Source of the DNA: a virus
Taxonomy: Duplodnaviria > Caudoviricetes
DNA: 29,894 nucleotides
Virus record (IMG/VR): IMGVR_UViG_3300017548_000014
Coordinates: 1-29,894 of that record
Direction: 5' to 3' (one strand)
The notes below the pieces were generated by a model that saw only the letters and a list, made by a program, of their open reading frames with translations, was not told the DNA's origin and did no database searches. This document shows positions 4,834 to 12,481 of this stretch, piece after piece. The position numbers and the translations under genes are program-made. Numbering within the stretch: position 1 is the first letter of the stretch; each line of letters opens with the position of its first letter.

Positions 4834-5399
4834 GATGCATCCCCCTCGTTCACATGCCGCCATGCACGGCCGTCTCTGACTTGTCGGATGGTCGACTCGT
4901 TCACGCCGAAGCGGCGCGCCAGTCGCGAAATGCTGCCGCGACCCGAGCGACATTCGCGCCTGATCTCGGGGATGTCGGCTTCGGAAAGTTTGGATTGCCG
5001 AGTGCGATCACCGACCGCCTTACGCCCGTTCCGCACAGCGTCGAGCAGGTTCTCGGATCGCGTTCCCCAGCGAAGGTTCACGAGGCGATTGTCGTCAGGG
5101 ATATCGTTGGCGTGGAGGGATTCATGTTCGCTCGGGCAGGGGCCGACGAACGCCTCCAGAACGAGGATATGAACGTCCACCGAGTGCCCGCGCCCGAGGG
5201 CCACGCTCACGTGACCAGACGGCTTTCGGCCCGGACGCAGCAGTTGCCCCTTGCGGGTGCGGTGTACCGTGATCTCGCGCCCCGAATATTGGTCGATGCG
5301 CTGATAGGGCAGGATGCGATCAAGGCTGCGGACGCGGCCGTGATCGGAGACCTCGTAGAGCCCTTCAAAGCCCTTAATCGGAAGCCAATGCTCGGCCAT
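4824..5399 (-). CDS. NUMOD4-HNH homing endonuclease with C-terminal HTH
   Basis: WLPIKGFEGLYEVSDHGRVRS (NUMOD4); VHILVLEAFVGP...HANDIPDDNRLVNLRWGTRSEN. Confidence 0.92.
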   Translation of the reverse strand: MAEHWLPIKGFEGLYEVSDHGRVRSLDRILPYQRIDQYSGREITVHRTRKGQLLRPGRKPSGHVSVALGRGHSVDVHILVLEAFVGPCPSEHESLHANDIPDDNRLVNLRWGTRSENLLDAVRNGRKAVGDRTRQSKLSEADIPEIRRECRSGRGSISRLARRFGVNESTIRQVRDGRAWRHVNEGDASCS

Positions 5400-5506
5400 C
5401 AGATCAGGCCCTTCCACATGCCGATGATTGAGAGGAGGACGGCCATCTGCAGCGCGCAGTTGATCGCAGCACAGGTCGTCTCGGGATGGTTGAGGGGGAG
5501 GCGCAT
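5399..5506 (-). CDS. 35-aa hydrophobic small protein (not in ORF track)
   Basis: MRLPLNHPETTCAAINCALQMAVLLSIIGMWKGLI*, TGATG-coupled at both ends. Confidence 0.7.
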   Translation of the reverse strand: MRLPLNHPETTCAAINCALQMAVLLSIIGMWKGLI

Positions 5507-7172: not shown

Positions 7173-7331
7173 TCATCGCCTCCGCAGTGCGACGTTGAAG
7201 CCATGAGGCAGACGGGGCGTGCTGATGCCGTCCCAATGCCCTCCGGCGCTCTCGACGGCGGCGTGGATGCAGGCGCTCCAGGTCTCGAATTCCTCGACCT
7301 CTTCGCCGTGGATCAGGAAGACCCAAGCCAT
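7173..7331 (-). CDS. 52-aa first gene of the PL operon (not in ORF track)
   Basis: MAWVFLIHGEEVEEFETWSACIHAAVESAGGHWDGISTPRLPHGFNVALRRR*; GAGG RBS; high GC3. Confidence 0.7.
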   Translation of the reverse strand: MAWVFLIHGEEVEEFETWSACIHAAVESAGGHWDGISTPRLPHGFNVALRRR

Positions 7332-7355
7332 GCCGTCGCCTCGTCTGTTGGGACC

Positions 7356-7408
7356 AAGCTAAGCATGATAGAAATATCACGTCAACAACAATGATGATAA
7401 AAATATCT
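7356..7408 (-). promoter_or_regulatory. PL-like promoter with two repressor operators (OL)
   Basis: -35 TTGACG (7385..7380), 17-18 bp spacer, TTAGCT/TAGCTT; operators TGATAGAAATATCA (7366-7379) and TGATAAAAATATCT (7395-7408). Confidence 0.8.
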
Positions 7409-7416
7409 TGCAGTCT

Positions 7417-7694
7417 GATATCGGCTCGGCTTACCCATATGGCGGGCTGTCACCGTGGCTGAGCCGGAATCCGGCGGAGCTTTCCCAGACAAGACGGCTG
7501 GCGTGGGGGTTAGATCATCCTACGGCGCGCTGGGGATCTGAGGACGGGCTATCCGAGAGGACGTCCTGCCAATGCGACCGACCGACACGACGGTTCAGGC
7601 CGCGGGCATGGGTTCCCTCCCTCTATGGTTCTCCATAGGGGGTAGGGGGTCTTTGCCTCGCTCCCTCCCTCCACTCGGGTTCAATCCCTTGGAG
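7417..7694 (+). ncRNA. Candidate large structured RNA (multibranch), family unassigned
   Basis: At least six nested helices with G-U pairs favouring the + strand, a GAGA tetraloop, and closing stem 7473-7479/7651-7657. Confidence 0.6.
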
Positions 7695-7701
7695 AAAGCC
7701 C

Positions 7702-7883
7702 ATGGCCAGACTGAACAACCTCAGTGCCAGATTGAAGGTGAATCAGTTCATGCAGGAGAACGGAAAACCACCGATCTCCGCCGACGCTCCTACGAAGAGT
7801 TCGCGAACGAACTGCGGAAACGGCTGGCGCCCGGCCAAGTGCAGGTGCCATTCGCAAGCGCCCTTATCGCGCAGGGGAGATAG
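7702..7883 (+). pseudogene. Probable frameshifted ORF remnant downstream of the structured RNA
   Basis: GGAG RBS and MARLNNLSARLKVNQFM...; protein-like text continues in another frame (YEEFANELRKRLAPG) near 7790. Confidence 0.45.
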
Positions 7884-7886
7884 GCC

Positions 7887-8090
7887 GTGCCGATCTCAGT
7901 GGAGCGAATGGCTCGCTACCCAGGCGGGGCAATCAGATCGAAGGAATGGAAGTCGTTTCGGGCGCTCATCCTCGAGCGCGCGCGGAACCGCTGCGGGGCA
8001 GCCATCGATAAATTCGGCCGACGCGGCGCCCTGACCTCGAGAGGACAAAACACGCCGCGCGCGCAGCGCGTTCAATCCGCGTGGTTCTAG
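7887..8090 (+). pseudogene. Truncated N-terminus of an HNH-type phage protein
   Basis: MPIS.ERMARYPGGAIRSKEWKSFRALILERARNRC resembles the W..R..ILER...C lead-in of HNH proteins; similarity ends at the first Cys. Confidence 0.55.
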
Positions 8091-8094
8091 TGGT

Positions 8095-8511
8095 CTACAC
8101 GGGTGTCGATGCCTTGGGTGGAGCCGGGGCTGTCTGCTCATATGGAAGCCGGGCGACTTCCTTCGGGTCCTCATCATCAATGGCGAGCTTGAGGATGAAA
8201 TCGCCCCAATGCTGTACCCTCTTCCGAACAGCCGGCAACGCGATCACGGAAGGGATGCTTTCTCGGGAGACCAGAATCTCGCCCGTTGCCTCAGCCGTGT
8301 CGCCGTCCGGGTCTTGGATGATCGCCTTAAATGTGTGTTTCCCTTGAGCAAGATGACGCAGGCGGATCCAGATGCTTAGGCCAAAAGTCGCGGGCACAGA
8401 TTTCGTAGCGACGTTCTGAGGATATACCCCAATCAACATCATCTTCCCGTTAACTTCTTGCCGAATATCATCGCAAAAGATGACATCCAAAATATCGTAG
8501 CCGGCACTCAT
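8095..8511 (-). CDS. Beta-rich third component of TA-like cassette (DUF6941-like)
   Basis: IFCDDIRQEVNGKMMLIGVY motif; TAATG coupling to the HTH gene; lower GC. Confidence 0.75.
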   Translation of the reverse strand: MSAGYDILDVIFCDDIRQEVNGKMMLIGVYPQNVATKSVPATFGLSIWIRLRHLAQGKHTFKAIIQDPDGDTAEATGEILVSRESIPSVIALPAVRKRVQHWGDFILKLAIDDEDPKEVARLPYEQTAPAPPKASTPV

Positions 8512-8924
8512 TAACGCACGACCCCGGCGCTATATGGATTAGTGGAGGGTAAAACTTCGTCGATTTCGAGCGCATTTACTTCGGATTCGTCCGAATGCGA
8601 CCAAGGGGAGGAGGAAAATGTTACAGGTGCCAGATGATTGTTTCTCTCTGGCTTCGTTTTTGGGTCGTAGATTTCGACGTCGATGCAGCATCCCAGCGCC
8701 CAAACCATGTCGGCAATGCTCTCGACGGTCATGTTGGTGTGACCCATCAGGCGACGATGCACGACTGAACGGTCGACGCCCAGCCGTTCGGCAAGGTCGA
8801 CTTGGGTGAGACCGTCCTCATCATGCAGGACCGCATAAGCCTTTCGTAGTTGATGCTCAATCGAGTTCGACAGCGACAGAAAAACCTGACGCCTGAGGCT
8901 CGGCAATTTACGGAAAGAGCTCAT
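8511..8924 (-). CDS. XRE/HigA-like HTH antitoxin with disordered C-terminal tail
   Basis: GLTQVDLAERLGVDRSVVHRRLMGHTNMTVESIADMVWALG. Confidence 0.85.
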   Translation of the reverse strand: MSSFRKLPSLRRQVFLSLSNSIEHQLRKAYAVLHDEDGLTQVDLAERLGVDRSVVHRRLMGHTNMTVESIADMVWALGCCIDVEIYDPKTKPERNNHLAPVTFSSSPWSHSDESEVNALEIDEVLPSTNPYSAGVVR

Positions 8925-9387
8925 AATTATTGCCTCTCATAACGACATCATCGAGCCGATTATCTCGGATGAATTTACGAACTTCCCGCAGCTTGAGTGT
9001 GTTCACCCGGCCATCGCGTTTAGTTTCGATCTCTAACGCTCCCGTAACCGCGACAAAGGCTGCCCCCGGTTTGAGGCAGAACCCATAAATCCGCAGCCCG
9101 GGCGGATGCATTTTCCGCACTCCTTGCCCGGTCGGCTTCATGCGCTTTAGATCACCGGCGCCGGGGCGATCTGCGCACCGATAATCGGAAAACATCATTT
9201 CGAGGTGCTCGGCGTGGCTCCGCCGGCTGGTCCGGAACTCCTCAGCGAGGAAATCGTCAACAAGGTCCGTCCATTCGAGAAAGCTCCTGGTCATGTACAG
9301 GCACCGCTGTGGAGGGCGAGAGTCCCACTCGGGAACTTCGAAAACCTCCACCTCTCGACGTCGCAATAACAGGTCGAGTGTTGCCAT
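8908..9387 (-). CDS. Putative RelE/HigB-like toxin
   Basis: DLKRMKPTGQGVRKMHPPGLRIYGF resembles the RelE-fold LK.L..G+wEl....RifgF; directly upstream of an HTH gene; alternative TTG start at 9399. Confidence 0.65.
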   Translation of the reverse strand: MATLDLLLRRREVEVFEVPEWDSRPPQRCLYMTRSFLEWTDLVDDFLAEEFRTSRRSHAEHLEMMFSDYRCADRPGAGDLKRMKPTGQGVRKMHPPGLRIYGFCLKPGAAFVAVTGALEIETKRDGRVNTLKLREVRKFIRDNRLDDVVMRGNNYELFP

Positions 9388-9398
9388 ATAAGTCAACA
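9379..9398. promoter_or_regulatory. Imperfect palindrome over the toxin start; putative antitoxin operator
   Basis: TGTTGCCATATAAGTCAACA (8 of 10 positions complementary). Confidence 0.55.
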
Positions 9399-9563
9399 AG
9401 AGCCTTCGTAAAGGGTTAAGGAACCGGAAGGGTGCGGCAATTTCGCAATCGTGAAAGGCGCCCGAGCCCGCGCCGAATGATCTGAATCTGGATCCGTCCG
9501 CTTCATCGTTTTCGCCGGCCCGTCACTTCACCACGCCGAACCGCCGCACTACGCGGCCGGTGA

Positions 9564-10343
9564 TCACAGCTTGCATATCCTGCCCACGGCACGCCCGATG
9601 ATCCGGATTTCGTCTGCCTTGTAGACGTCCGAACCCTGTTTCGGATTGTCGGAGTCAACGGCGACCTCGGCGCCCTTCAGCTTGCGGAGGCGCTTCACCA
9701 GCACTTCGCCGTCAGGATCGAGCAGCACGAACACGCCGCCCTGGCCGATGGCCGTATCGGTTGTGTCCACCAGCACCCGGTCGCCGGAGCCCAAGGTTGG
9801 CTCCATGCTGTCACCGCGGACTTTGACGAAGTGCACGCGCTGCGATCCGGCGTGGGTGAAGTCTCGCAGCACATAATCCGGGAACACGAATTCGCCGCGC
9901 ACGGCATGGGCATCATAGACGACGCCACCACCGCCAGGCAGATGAGCGGGGAGCGACAGGCCGCCGGGCCCGGCACCGGCCGACACGTCGACGTCGGGCA
10001 TCGCCCCGGGAACCGAACCCTGATAGGGCGCTTCTGTCGAGACGCCGCCATTGGTGTTGGCCTCGAACACCGGATCGGGGTCGAACTCTTCGCCAGGAGG
10101 CACACGCCTCGGCTCATTGTCCGAAATCTCTTCGGGGCCCTCTTCCCTCAGCAGCCAAACTTCCGTGGTCTTCAGCACGCGGGCAATCTTCGCCAGGCCG
10201 TCGGCGCGTGGCGACACGGACTTCCCGTCGAAAATGTTCGTGATGAAGCGTTCGCTGAGCCCAGCCTCTAACGATGCGCCGCGGGGCGATTTTCCAACTG
10301 CGGCTAGGCGCTTTCGGATTCGGTCGGGGAGGGTCGTTTCCAT
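9564..10343 (-). CDS. cI: CI-like repressor (HTH plus S24 peptidase)
   Basis: N-terminal HTH (SPRGASLEAGLSERFITNI); VRGDSMEP (Ser) and LVKRL (Lys); IIGRAV end; start METTLPDR. Confidence 0.93.
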   Translation of the reverse strand: METTLPDRIRKRLAAVGKSPRGASLEAGLSERFITNIFDGKSVSPRADGLAKIARVLKTTEVWLLREEGPEEISDNEPRRVPPGEEFDPDPVFEANTNGGVSTEAPYQGSVPGAMPDVDVSAGAGPGGLSLPAHLPGGGGVVYDAHAVRGEFVFPDYVLRDFTHAGSQRVHFVKVRGDSMEPTLGSGDRVLVDTTDTAIGQGGVFVLLDPDGEVLVKRLRKLKGAEVAVDSDNPKQGSDVYKADEIRIIGRAVGRICKL

Positions 10344-10440
10344 CGCCGGGGAGTATGCCGACGAATTATCCCCCTCGTGAGTGATACCATTATCATGCTT
10401 TCTGTTGACGGCATGATAAAGATATCGCACTCTCTCGGGC
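10344..10440. promoter_or_regulatory. OR/PR/PRM control region
   Basis: Operators TGATACCATTATCA (10382-10395) and TGATAAAGATATCG (10414-10427); PR TTGACG(10405)-17-CACTCT; CATACT on - strand just upstream of cI. Confidence 0.8.
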
Positions 10441-10692
10441 ATGACGCTCGTTGAAGAAATCATCACCGTCTCCAAGGCCTATGGCACCGCCCGCGGCATC
10501 AGCCTCGGACGCGTCTCCATGCTCGCCTTCGGTGACGGAAACCTCCTGAAGCGCCTCGAAAGCGGTTCGGACCTCACCACGCGGCGCCTGGAAGGCGCGA
10601 TGCGCTGGTTCTCCGCCAATTGGCCCGAGAACGGCGAGTGGCCGGACGACGTGCCGCGCCCCGCGCCTGAGCCGGAAGGGGCGGCGGCGTGA
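10441..10692 (+). CDS. cro: Cro-like regulator
   Basis: Divergent from cI; SLGRVSMLAFGDGNLLKRLESGSDLTTRR...WFSANWP type. Confidence 0.85.
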   Translation: MTLVEEIITVSKAYGTARGISLGRVSMLAFGDGNLLKRLESGSDLTTRRLEGAMRWFSANWPENGEWPDDVPRPAPEPEGAAA

Positions 10693-11391: not shown

Positions 11392-11879
11392 GCGGAAGCC
11401 GTCAGCTCCCGGCGAGTGACTATGCGCGCCTGAAAGCCGCGACGCGCGATCTGGTGAAGATGGCCGGCGGTCCCAACCGCGCCTCCACCGTCACGCGCGT
11501 CGTGCCCTCCAAGCTGACCGAATACGGCAGCCCGCACCTGTCCACGCATATGCCGCTCGACGTCATTGCCGACCTCGAGGCGGACGTTGGCGAGCCCGTC
11601 GTGACGTCAGTCCTGGCCGACCTGATGGGCTTCGTGCTGGTGCCGAAGGCCGCCACGAAGCAGCCCGACCAGACCATCGCCGCCAGCATGGGCGAAGTCG
11701 CGAAGGACGTCGGCGACGTGCTCTGCAAGCTCGGCGCCGCGCTGTCCGATGGCAGCGTCACGGTCGAGGAAGCCCTCAAGATCCTGCCCAGCGTCCGCGA
11801 GGCCGAAACCGAGCTCTCCGAACTGGAAGAGGCGCTGGAAGCCAAGAGCAGCGTCGTGCCGCTCGGGAGGGCGTCATGA
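11388..11879 (+). CDS. Phage regulatory CII-like protein
   Basis: LKAATRDLVKMAGG...MPLDVIADLEADVGEPVVT...LSDGSVTVEE; position after cro. Confidence 0.75.
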   Translation: MSGSRQLPASDYARLKAATRDLVKMAGGPNRASTVTRVVPSKLTEYGSPHLSTHMPLDVIADLEADVGEPVVTSVLADLMGFVLVPKAATKQPDQTIAASMGEVAKDVGDVLCKLGAALSDGSVTVEEALKILPSVREAETELSELEEALEAKSSVVPLGRAS

Positions 11880-12481
11880 GCGCTTTCTGGACACCCGAGC
11901 GCATCGACACGCTCAAGCGGATGGCTGCCGACAAGTGCAGCGCCTCCGTCATCGCGCGGGAGATCGGCGCCACCCGCAACCAAGTCATCGGCAAGGCCGG
12001 CCGGCTCAAGGTCGGGCTCAGCCAGAAGAGGGCCATCGTATCCCAGGCCATGCGCGGCGCTCTGGCGTCGTCGGCCAAGGCCGCGGCCAAGCGCGCCAAG
12101 CCCTCGCTCCCCCAAGTTCTGTCCGCCCCTAACTCCCCCGTGTCCGACGCCGGCGCGGGCAACAAGGCTGAGGATCTGCGGGAAACCGTAGCAATGCTCG
12201 GGGCGGCGCCGGAGGAGATCGGGGAGGTTGCCTCCTCTCTCGATCAGCACCCCTCCGGCGACATGACGGGCCAATCCTCGGCGGGCGTCACCCTTTTCGA
12301 CCTGCGGCGGGACTCCTGCCGCTTCCCCGTCTCGGGCGAGGGCATCGGCACGATCTTCTGCGGCGAGAAGGCCGAGGAAGGCCGCTCCTACTGCCCGGTC
12401 TGCTACCCGCGCACGATCACCAAAAGCGCCGGTGGGGACTTCACGTTCAACCGCAAGAACGACGAGCGGGAGGCGGCGTAG
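11876..12481 (+). CDS. gcrA: GcrA-family cell-cycle regulator homologue
   Basis: WTPERIDTLK...SASVIAREIGATRNQVIGKAGRL; TLFDLRRDSCRFPV...FCG...SYCPVC. Confidence 0.88.
   Translation: MSAFWTPERIDTLKRMAADKCSASVIAREIGATRNQVIGKAGRLKVGLSQKRAIVSQAMRGALASSAKAAAKRAKPSLPQVLSAPNSPVSDAGAGNKAEDLRETVAMLGAAPEEIGEVASSLDQHPSGDMTGQSSAGVTLFDLRRDSCRFPVSGEGIGTIFCGEKAEEGRSYCPVCYPRTITKSAGGDFTFNRKNDEREAA

Follow-up and report, generated by a model that had tools for sequence, protein, structure and literature searches.

The 29.9-kb IMG/VR virus record IMGVR_UViG_3300017548_000014 (29,894 nucleotides (nt), analysed at full length and called the window below) belongs to a temperate phage of 64.6% GC, and its plus strand carries at 7446-7671 an element which, judged by its conservation in other phages, is a member of a non-coding structured RNA family of about 225 nt that is lacking in Rfam. 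The element is rated as a regulatory RNA of the phage immunity region with a fold of its own. A sequence-only reading of the window had proposed at this place a functional non-coding RNA of the plus strand beside the leftward early promoter PL, and that proposal is well supported by conservation, covariation and indels of a non-coding kind. As to its role, the element is tentatively taken, with a confidence slightly short of even, for a repressor-controlled leader RNA with a built-in folding switch.

The ~225-nt element was found at the same place in seven further records, namely four IMG/VR proviruses, two prophages on Pseudochrobactrum plasmids and one "Synechococcus" phage, which together with the window make up the eight loci to which the counts below refer, and the carriers span 46% to 64% GC. 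With the cI repressor as an anchor, 64 IMG/VR loci were collected and the element was present in one of them, L002 (provirus G001; cI 52% identical; nhmmer E 1.3e-12); with RecT as an anchor it was present in two of 12 loci, G001 again and L312 (nhmmer E 3.2e-63), and the loci L324 and L325 were found by a pattern scan built on the invariant blocks. The use of L312, L329 or L324 as blastn queries revealed the "Synechococcus" phage OM868082.1 together with PP438429.1, and four plasmids of Pseudochrobactrum, three of which belong to P. algeriensis and one to strain XF203. On the XF203 plasmid, NZ_CP084393.1, the element of the prophage is located at about 107,590-107,870. Eight sequences were aligned, with the remaining three records left out for their near-identical hit statistics, and a profile made of the eight recovered seven foreign records only, among 341 loci searched (1.98 Mb). 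The phage collection contained no blastn match for 7340-8095, the homologue queries later finding two phages; an exact 22-mer of the long hairpin had no match in the viral contig collection; the 138-amino-acid (aa) product of the first PL gene was an orphan with a self-match only among the three candidates scored, and yielded no distinct loci; and the DUF6941 protein, tried as an anchor too, had no relative. The pattern GAGGACGGG-N2-5-TCCGAGAGG (18 bases) drew 120 genome and 119 metagenome stretches, which were chance matches in high-GC coding DNA, none of them reaching E 0.01 with the profile, and one more chance match (L066) in the viral contigs. The pattern TCCTACNGNGC-N8-16-GAGGAC matched 12 times in a sample of 401 alphaproteobacterial genomes, the matches falling in 10 of them; this is no more than its reversed control gave, and none of the 12 fits the profile. 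By these searches, the family is rare. Among soil DNA contigs of near-identical sequence, the element itself was covered only in run X5.

The window and G001 are mosaic relatives, with terminases 83% identical at the protein level and matching segments of RecT, nuclease, cI and cII; within 3.8-9.5 kb of the window, however, the element is their sole match (71% identity by blastn, none by tblastx), and the operators beside it differ between the records. The element is separated from that of L002 by indels of 1, 2, 3 and 5 nt, of which those that are not multiples of three argue against coding. As the sequence-only reading had held, no open reading frame (ORF) with codon periodicity covers 7415-7670, where GC is flat across the three codon positions, and the ORFs that overlap the element are "conserved" merely as translations of the RNA.

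The helices were located by their near-constant offset from the invariant UCCUAC. In the 5' half they follow one another as the 5' strand of Pb, the hairpin H, the 5' strand of Pa, 4-5 nt, the 3' strand of Pb, 2 nt, the hairpin P1 and the 3' strand of Pa, so that Pa and Pb cross and a pseudoknot is predicted. The 5' strand of Pb, GCUGUC (7446-7451), pairs with GACGGC (7493-7498); the helix has six versions in the eight homologues (GCUGUC/GACGGC, UCCGCC/GGCGGA, UCCGCU/GGCGGA, UCAUGAU/AUUGUGA, GUGG/CCAC and GCGG/CCGC), with its innermost 4 bp paired in 32/32 cells of the alignment, compared with 36% for foreign partners. The hairpin H (GGCU-GA-GCCG / CGGC-GG-AGCU, 7457-7481) likewise has six versions, paired in 24/24 cells (foreign partner 42%). 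Pa joins UUCCCAG (7482-7488) to CUGGGGA (7530-7536) and is known in seven versions, paired in 32/32 cells (foreign partner 61%), among them CCCAG/CUGGG, CUCAG/CUGAG, CCGAAC/GUUUGG, CUGG/CCAG, CAGG/CCUG and UUCUGG/CCAGAA. Enclosed by Pa is P1 (GCGYGGGG...UCCUACGGYGC, 7501-7528), which is nearly invariant and carries a GAAA tetraloop in seven homologues, the window being the exception. All stems that the sequence-only reading had listed are in the sequence, roughly where it had placed them, and the homologues divide them: its first arm stands as Pa, each of the seven versions of which pairs, with P1 as the inner hairpin, whereas its 5' hairpin TCGGCTCGGC/GCTGAGCCGG is not kept, its place being taken by Pb (7446-7451/7493-7498) and H (7457-7481), and its closing stem GGCGGAG/CTTTGCC is not conserved.

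The 3' half runs from GAGGAC through P3, X, P4, Y, P5, UCUU and Z to the tail CCCUCCCUC. It is entered by a joining strand (7537-7545), the terminal GAGGAC of which is invariant in all eight sequences and the GAGG of which (7540-7543) is predicted to pair with CCUC at 7664-7667, a helix proposed by RNAalifold and called P2. The hairpin P3 (7546-7566) consists of GGGC/GUCC, then UCC/GGA and an invariant GAGA tetraloop, with P3a in seven versions paired in 24/24 cells; the GAGA-capped arm of the sequence-only reading thus stands as a hairpin, but with GGGC/GUCC as the conserved outer register instead of AGGACG/CGTCCT. P4 (7574-7603; outer GCGAC/GCCGC, inner ACCG/CGGU) occurs in two family versions of the same build, of which the window has version A, and P4a has five versions with 31/32 cells paired (foreign partner 28%). 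The long hairpin P5 (UUCCCU-CCCUCUAUGG / CCAUAGGGGG-U-AGGGGG, 7613-7649) has a nearly invariant G5-UA-G5 strand, opposite which the C-rich strand varies between C and U with G-C or G.U pairs preserved. The two remaining arms of the sequence-only reading, GACCG/CGGTT as the inner part of P4 and the long hairpin as P5, are backed by the homologues. After P5 comes the tract UCUU (7650-7653), conserved as UCUUU in 8/8, which would either be the tail of a weak terminator or pair with 7605-7612 and so extend P5 at its base. The C-rich tail CCCUCCCUC (7663-7671) resembles an anti-Shine-Dalgarno sequence and marks the 3' limit of family-wide conservation. The hairpin CUCCA/UGGAG (7669-7694), which covers the GGAG before the ATG at 7702 and was put forward as sequestering the ribosome-binding site, is in the minimum-free-energy fold of the window; elsewhere it recurs only in L324, where no ORF follows, and is not a feature of the family. 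RNAalifold on the hand-anchored alignment gives Pa around P1, and a four-way junction (P3, P4 and extended P5) closed by GAGG/CCUC.

Strands pair with their own partners completely in seven of the eight helices and in 31/32 cells in P4a, as against 28-93% with foreign partners. MAFFT alignments shift Pa, X-Y and P4a by 1-2 columns, and the pairs were therefore counted on a hand-anchored alignment, in which 463/487 cells pair on the plus strand (71 as G.U) and 393/487 on the opposite strand. The covariation fits an RNA read from the plus strand, and the strand preference that had been read from the G.U pairs of the window alone is borne out by these counts. Among the 69 proposed pairs, 35 are changed on both sides and yet still paired, and partner shuffles reached the observed pairing in 0/1000 trials for the nested helices, 0/1000 for Pb and 1/1000 for X-Y. 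The comparison of folding energy with shuffled controls was barely beyond chance for the single sequence: the plus strand folds at -127.4 kcal/mol against -118.0 +/- 5.3 for dinucleotide shuffles (z -1.79; 8/200 shuffles matching it), the opposite strand has z -1.03, and the L002 element taken alone has z -2.14.

The family is also a mosaic in itself, since two types of the 5' domain and two versions of P4 plus tail are seen in all four combinations, and the near-identical Pseudochrobactrum prophages L329 and L330 diverge exactly from P4 onward, together with the cargo gene, and this suggests that cargo is exchanged by recombination at the invariant core, which would act as the joint. Such mosaicism at a hot spot of gene exchange, the single-sequence z of only -1.79 and the rarity of the family (only 5 IMG/VR records besides that of the window and no true match in the 401 genomes) would suit a sequence of no function, be it a recombination linker or the remains of a coding sequence, that persists by chance or through recent descent. 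That explanation is, however, hardly credible, as homologues in hosts of 46% to 64% GC preserve every helix by compensatory changes while the flanks have diverged beyond recognition, and the indels break any reading frame.

A hint at how the RNA may work comes from three short strands, X (UGCC, 7567-7570), Y (GGCA, 7605-7608) and Z (UGCC, 7654-7657), of which Y can pair with X or with Z. In each member X and Z are identical 4-mers, both complementary to Y, with the exception of L330 (Z = UGCU), and the Y-Z pairs are found in 32/32 cells. The three strands read UGCC-GGCA-UGCC in the window, L325 and L324 (and in L330 with UGCU as Z), UGGC-GCCA-UGGC in L002 and L312, UAGC-GUUA-UAGC in L329, and UUGC-GCAA-UUGC in L328. 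X-Y closes P4, Y-Z lengthens P5 over the U tract, and the two are mutually exclusive. When either is forced, the folds of the 3' domain lie 0.7-3.4 kcal/mol apart in seven of the eight sequences and 6.3 in L328, and without constraint the optimal fold contains Y-Z in five of the eight and X-Y in the remaining three; an RNA that ends directly before Z is predicted to fold with X-Y in all eight (3-4 of the 4 pairs). In these models X/Y/Z looks like a bistable element, and the concerted change of its strands indicates that the two alternative pairings are kept by selection.

In all eight loci the element is flanked on one side by PL and the operators of a RecT-type early-left operon, and on the other by the leftward repressor operon with its 3' end. 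It lies across the operators from PL, on the strand opposite PL, and faces the end of the repressor operon. The window has two left repressor operators (OL, 7363-7378 and 7392-7407) of a 16-mer repeat family common to the cI/cro intergenic region, and the TTGACG hexamer (7380-7385, minus strand), read from the sequence as the putative -35 of PL, sits between the two OL copies, so that the earlier placing of the RNA beside PL was correct. The leftward early operon begins at 7331 (minus strand) and includes an exonuclease, a PD-(D/E)XK nuclease and RecT (Pfam/PHROGs). On the other side, about 750 bases without a convincing gene extend from PL to the DUF6941 gene (8095-8511), the last of the repressor operon. 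A promoter for the RNA is predicted at 7408-7436 (plus strand; TTGCAG, 17 nt, TTACCC), abutting the operator and diverging from PL, and in most of the eight homologues a TTGNNN hexamer, by eye, overlaps or abuts the nearest operator ~38-40 nt before Pb.

Downstream of the element a co-oriented ORF follows in five loci and a convergent gene in three (L312, L324 and L325). The co-oriented ORFs are a small one in the window, an 84-aa ORF in L002, DUF5131 in the Synechococcus phage and P. algeriensis, and DUF488 in XF203; the convergent genes are an acyltransferase-like membrane-protein gene in L312 (judged from its sequence, with no Pfam scan), an XRE helix-turn-helix (HTH) gene in L324 that ends 15 nt after the element, and a DUF3800 gene in L325. 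Except for DUF5131, seen twice, the downstream ORFs are mutually unrelated. The small ORF of the window (7702-7883, plus strand) has a GC3 signal and no Pfam family, and is frameshifted near 7787; one 151-base contig of the soil run X10 has an extra T behind 7787 that makes of it a single 60-aa frame, and in the contigs of runs X5 and X8 the sequence at this place is that of the window, so the polymorphism could be a real frameshift allele or a low-depth assembly error. The "decayed ORFs" of the sequence-only reading are confirmed only in part: the frame of the small ORF is lost from ~7787 in the window and intact in that soil contig. The second ORF (7887-8087) has no Pfam match either, and a suspected HNH remnant at 7887-8000 was dropped for want of Pfam support. 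In L325 a DUF3800-VII RNA (RF02967, 58.9 bits; 5344-5433) is located 3' of the DUF3800 gene, between the gene and the element, so that this cargo slot contains a second structured RNA, one already known. The two Pseudochrobactrum loci have at their edge (L329 1-600, L330 1-620) a tRNA gene and a glycine riboswitch aptamer, probably part of the host DNA close to one prophage end.

Under the leader-switch reading, transcription would start at a promoter overlapping OL and divergent from PL, by which the phage repressor would set the level of the RNA. The X-Y pairing would form first during RNA synthesis, and after the emergence of Z the two folds would compete, with the choice exposing or burying the U tract and the C-rich tail and thereby gating termination, processing or translation downstream. 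In loci with a cargo ORF this ORF would be the target, and in the others the target would be transcription that reads through antisense to the immunity operon; candidates for the trigger are a protein, a small molecule or the folding kinetics.

A number of points weigh against this reading. The promoter is a weak consensus match, the strict -35/-10 pattern occurring in three of the eight loci (L312, L324 and L328), and a consensus scan of the window gave no sigma-70 site. The U tract is short (UCUUU) and was not flagged by the terminator scan; for a terminator defined as a GC-rich hairpin with at least five U in 8 nt, the hairpin is conserved, and the window tail TCTTTGCC has four T and that of L328 five by eye. 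Y-Z can form only once the polymerase has passed the U tract, therefore the switch cannot decide termination there, and a role confined to acting in cis on a cargo gene cannot hold for the whole family, since no co-oriented ORF follows in L312, L324 and L325. The P2 helix GAGG/CCUC is without covariation, which is impossible where both strands barely vary. Since the pairings guided the manual choice of the helices and the alignment, and since the sequences are related, the counts lean towards the model; the sequences are eight only, several of them close kin and the element itself mosaic, and folding of the single sequences of the window and L002 beats the shuffles marginally. Among the sequencing runs listed as containing the region there is no RNA run. 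A search for complementary targets over ~9 kb to each side of the element in the eight loci found none that recurs, which removes one possible trans mechanism but does not thereby prove a cis one.

The main rival is a stand-alone, trans-acting small RNA (sRNA) with its own promoter, ending at P5 and the U tract or processed. Its targets would be a protein or mRNAs of the host or the phage, with the C-rich CCCUCCCUC or the P4 arm, which exists in two versions, as examples of contact sites, and the downstream genes would be unrelated insertions. C-rich anti-Shine-Dalgarno motifs are typical of alphaproteobacterial sRNAs; the GC-rich hairpin with UCUUU is kept in all eight loci, the element is whole in the three with a convergent gene directly after it, and the downstream ORFs have nothing in common apart from the DUF5131 pair. 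An sRNA is for these reasons a real possibility, though the less probable one, given that conservation extends ~20-40 nt beyond the U tract and so outside an RNA ending there, that the tail has no terminator-like site after it, that the triple covariation of X, Y and Z requires Z, 3' of the U tract, to be within the RNA, and that the neighbourhood of the eight loci offers no recurrent complementary target.

The position of the element invites another comparison, with RNAs that modify the polymerase. A leader working in the manner of HK022 put or Bacillus EAR would make RNA polymerase read through terminators, and the OL-side transcript would run antisense into the repressor operon during lytic growth, as processive antitermination or anti-immunity. 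The element is promoter-proximal, pseudoknotted, indifferent to the downstream gene and faces the 3' end of the immunity operon in 8/8; the convergent XRE-type HTH gene of L324, possibly the repressor of that phage, ends 15 nt past it, and a terminator-like palindrome lies downstream in the window at 8049-8072. However, neither similarity to put or EAR nor an Rfam match is seen, the element is three times the size of put, and the co-oriented protein genes in five of the eight loci suggest ordinary expression over pure antisense, which makes this mechanism quite improbable.

The mechanisms that the sequence-only reading had itself offered, namely an R-loop origin primer, a self-cleaving ribozyme or a HEARO/omega-like RNA that serves a nuclease module as guide or scaffold, are more improbable still. 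The size and the multi-helix build recall omega RNAs, the G5-UA-G5 tract is nearly invariant, and the strongly conserved joining strands could suit catalysis. Yet no IscB, TnpB or HNH gene adjoins the element in any of the eight loci, no nuclease gene travels with it, and the window's neighbouring ORF 7887-8087 is without a Pfam match. The G tract is the base-paired 3' strand of a covarying hairpin, where C/U changes opposite preserve G-C or G.U pairs, and the site beside PL is far from the replication genes, which stand to the right of cro/cII; a primer role is disfavoured on both counts. Rfam 15 (4227 models) gave no match at gathering scores in the whole window, as that reading had recommended checking, and none over the element in the seven homologous loci; at E up to 10 only miRNA and snoRNA noise appeared, with no HEARO or ribozyme. 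No known self-cleaving core was seen by eye either: the CUGAGGA of a hammerhead core is present, but no GAAA after the next helix. A tRNA-like 3' end, ACCA, is found in three of the eight members; neither tRNA nor tmRNA, including the two-piece alphaproteobacterial form, was found by ARAGORN or the Rfam models.

Among the known systems, the phage immunity RNAs c4 of phages P1/P7 and CI of satellite P4 (Rfam C4, RF01695) share with the element the location in an immunity region at the 5' end of a transcription unit. In c4 one RNA segment is complementary to two copies of a short sequence up- and downstream (a1b1 and a2b2 against a'b'), formally as X and Z are to Y. However, cmscan gave no sequence or structure match; c4 and CI are ~70-80 nt long, compared with ~225 nt and a pseudoknot here; the complementarity of the element amounts to 4-9 nt within one molecule, and its hosts are Alphaproteobacteria; and neither an antirepressor operon of the icd/ant type nor an ant-like gene was seen after it. 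With riboswitches and attenuators it shares a conserved multi-helix domain that covaries, contains a pseudoknot and is connected by invariant joining strands; after this domain come helices that exclude each other and a GC-rich hairpin bearing a U tract, and an ORF follows (in five of the eight loci). A conserved, aptamer-like fold with covariation was found on the hand-made alignment, and the expression platform would consist of X-Y and Y-Z, which are exclusive, covarying and nearly isoenergetic, with Z after the U tract and the ribosome-binding hairpin not conserved. Unlike riboswitches, the element has no known ligand, and the downstream genes form no coherent regulon and are not co-oriented in three loci; its U tract is weak, and its alternative strand is 3' of that tract and cannot act as a classical antiterminator. 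The put RNA of HK022 and the EAR of Bacillus are, like the element, structured RNAs just after a phage early-region promoter, the action of which would be independent of the gene downstream, the EAR having a pseudoknot too; put, however, is inside the PL and PR transcripts, whereas the element diverges from PL, and in sequence, size and fold there is no similarity to either. The HEARO or omega RNA of IscB is likewise a multi-helix RNA of a few hundred nt 5' of an ORF, from which the element differs in the missing Rfam match, the absence of an IscB/TnpB-like gene in the eight loci and a setting that is not of the IS200/IS605 kind. By analogy, then, the element is formally closest to the c4/CI immunity RNAs or to a riboswitch-type platform and is probably a member of neither, because defining features of both were tested for and are not found in it.

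A literature search, covering listings and the starts of abstracts, found no description of such an element, which is not proof of none, and no paper naming Yong-M2-251. The preprint 10.64898/2026.09.22.753630 concerns, in the part available, the RNAs of UG27 reverse transcriptases and TwoAYGGAY and not the present element.

Further along the window, an S24/LexA-type cI repressor gene (9564-10475, minus strand; Pfam and PHROGs; likely ATG at 10343) is separated by the right operators (OR, 10383-10398 and 10411-10426, the same 16-mer with one copy inverted) from cro-like, cII-like and GcrA-like genes running rightward from 10441 on the plus strand (Pfam/PHROGs). The GcrA-like cell-cycle regulator gene (11876-12481; PF07750, E 2.9e-20) adjoins the cII-like gene and, by this homology, indicates a host among the Alphaproteobacteria. 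The end of the repressor operon (8095-9399) is a block of lower GC (51-58%) encoding the DUF6941 protein, a small HTH protein and a 163-aa protein without a family, and is followed by the palindrome of 8049-8072 on the minus strand; it looks like prophage cargo co-expressed with the repressor. The locus of the "Synechococcus" phage (L328; OM868082.1 12174-20348) has 60% GC and an immunity/RecT module built like those of alphaproteobacterial prophages. The GC of PCC 7002 is much lower than 60%, and the host assignment or the ancestry of this phage is worth a look.

Regulatory RNAs of immunity regions are known from a few enterobacterial models, such as oop, sar, c4, CI and put, and to our knowledge almost nothing comparable has been described for the temperate phages of Alphaproteobacteria. 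The element is large and ornate for a phage regulator, with its pseudoknot, two GNRA loops and invariant junctions, and it is retained while the neighbouring genes and even the operators are exchanged; its three co-varying strands are a rare kind of evidence for two alternative folds. It also marks a slot of prophage cargo, with DUF5131 and DUF488 and, on the opposite strand, DUF3800, an acyltransferase and a restriction enzyme. A bolder idea, which we consider unlikely but worth stating, is that of a phage-borne RNA sensor of a new class wired into the lysis-lysogeny switch, in which a signal from the host or the phage would be bound by the junction and the pseudoknotted 5' domain, so tipping the X/Y/Z toggle, and the latter would decide whether the operator-controlled transcript enters the cargo genes and, antisense, the repressor operon. 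The role of the element is directly testable because cultured carriers exist, Pseudochrobactrum sp. XF203 and the phage Yong-M2-251. Were the RNA a trans-acting sRNA, it would be a prophage tool for reprogramming the host; were it a sensor, prophage commitment would have an input at the level of RNA, carried by a cassette that recombines between phages; and if it gates transcription towards the repressor operon, it would be a new input to the lysis-lysogeny decision and a portable control part.

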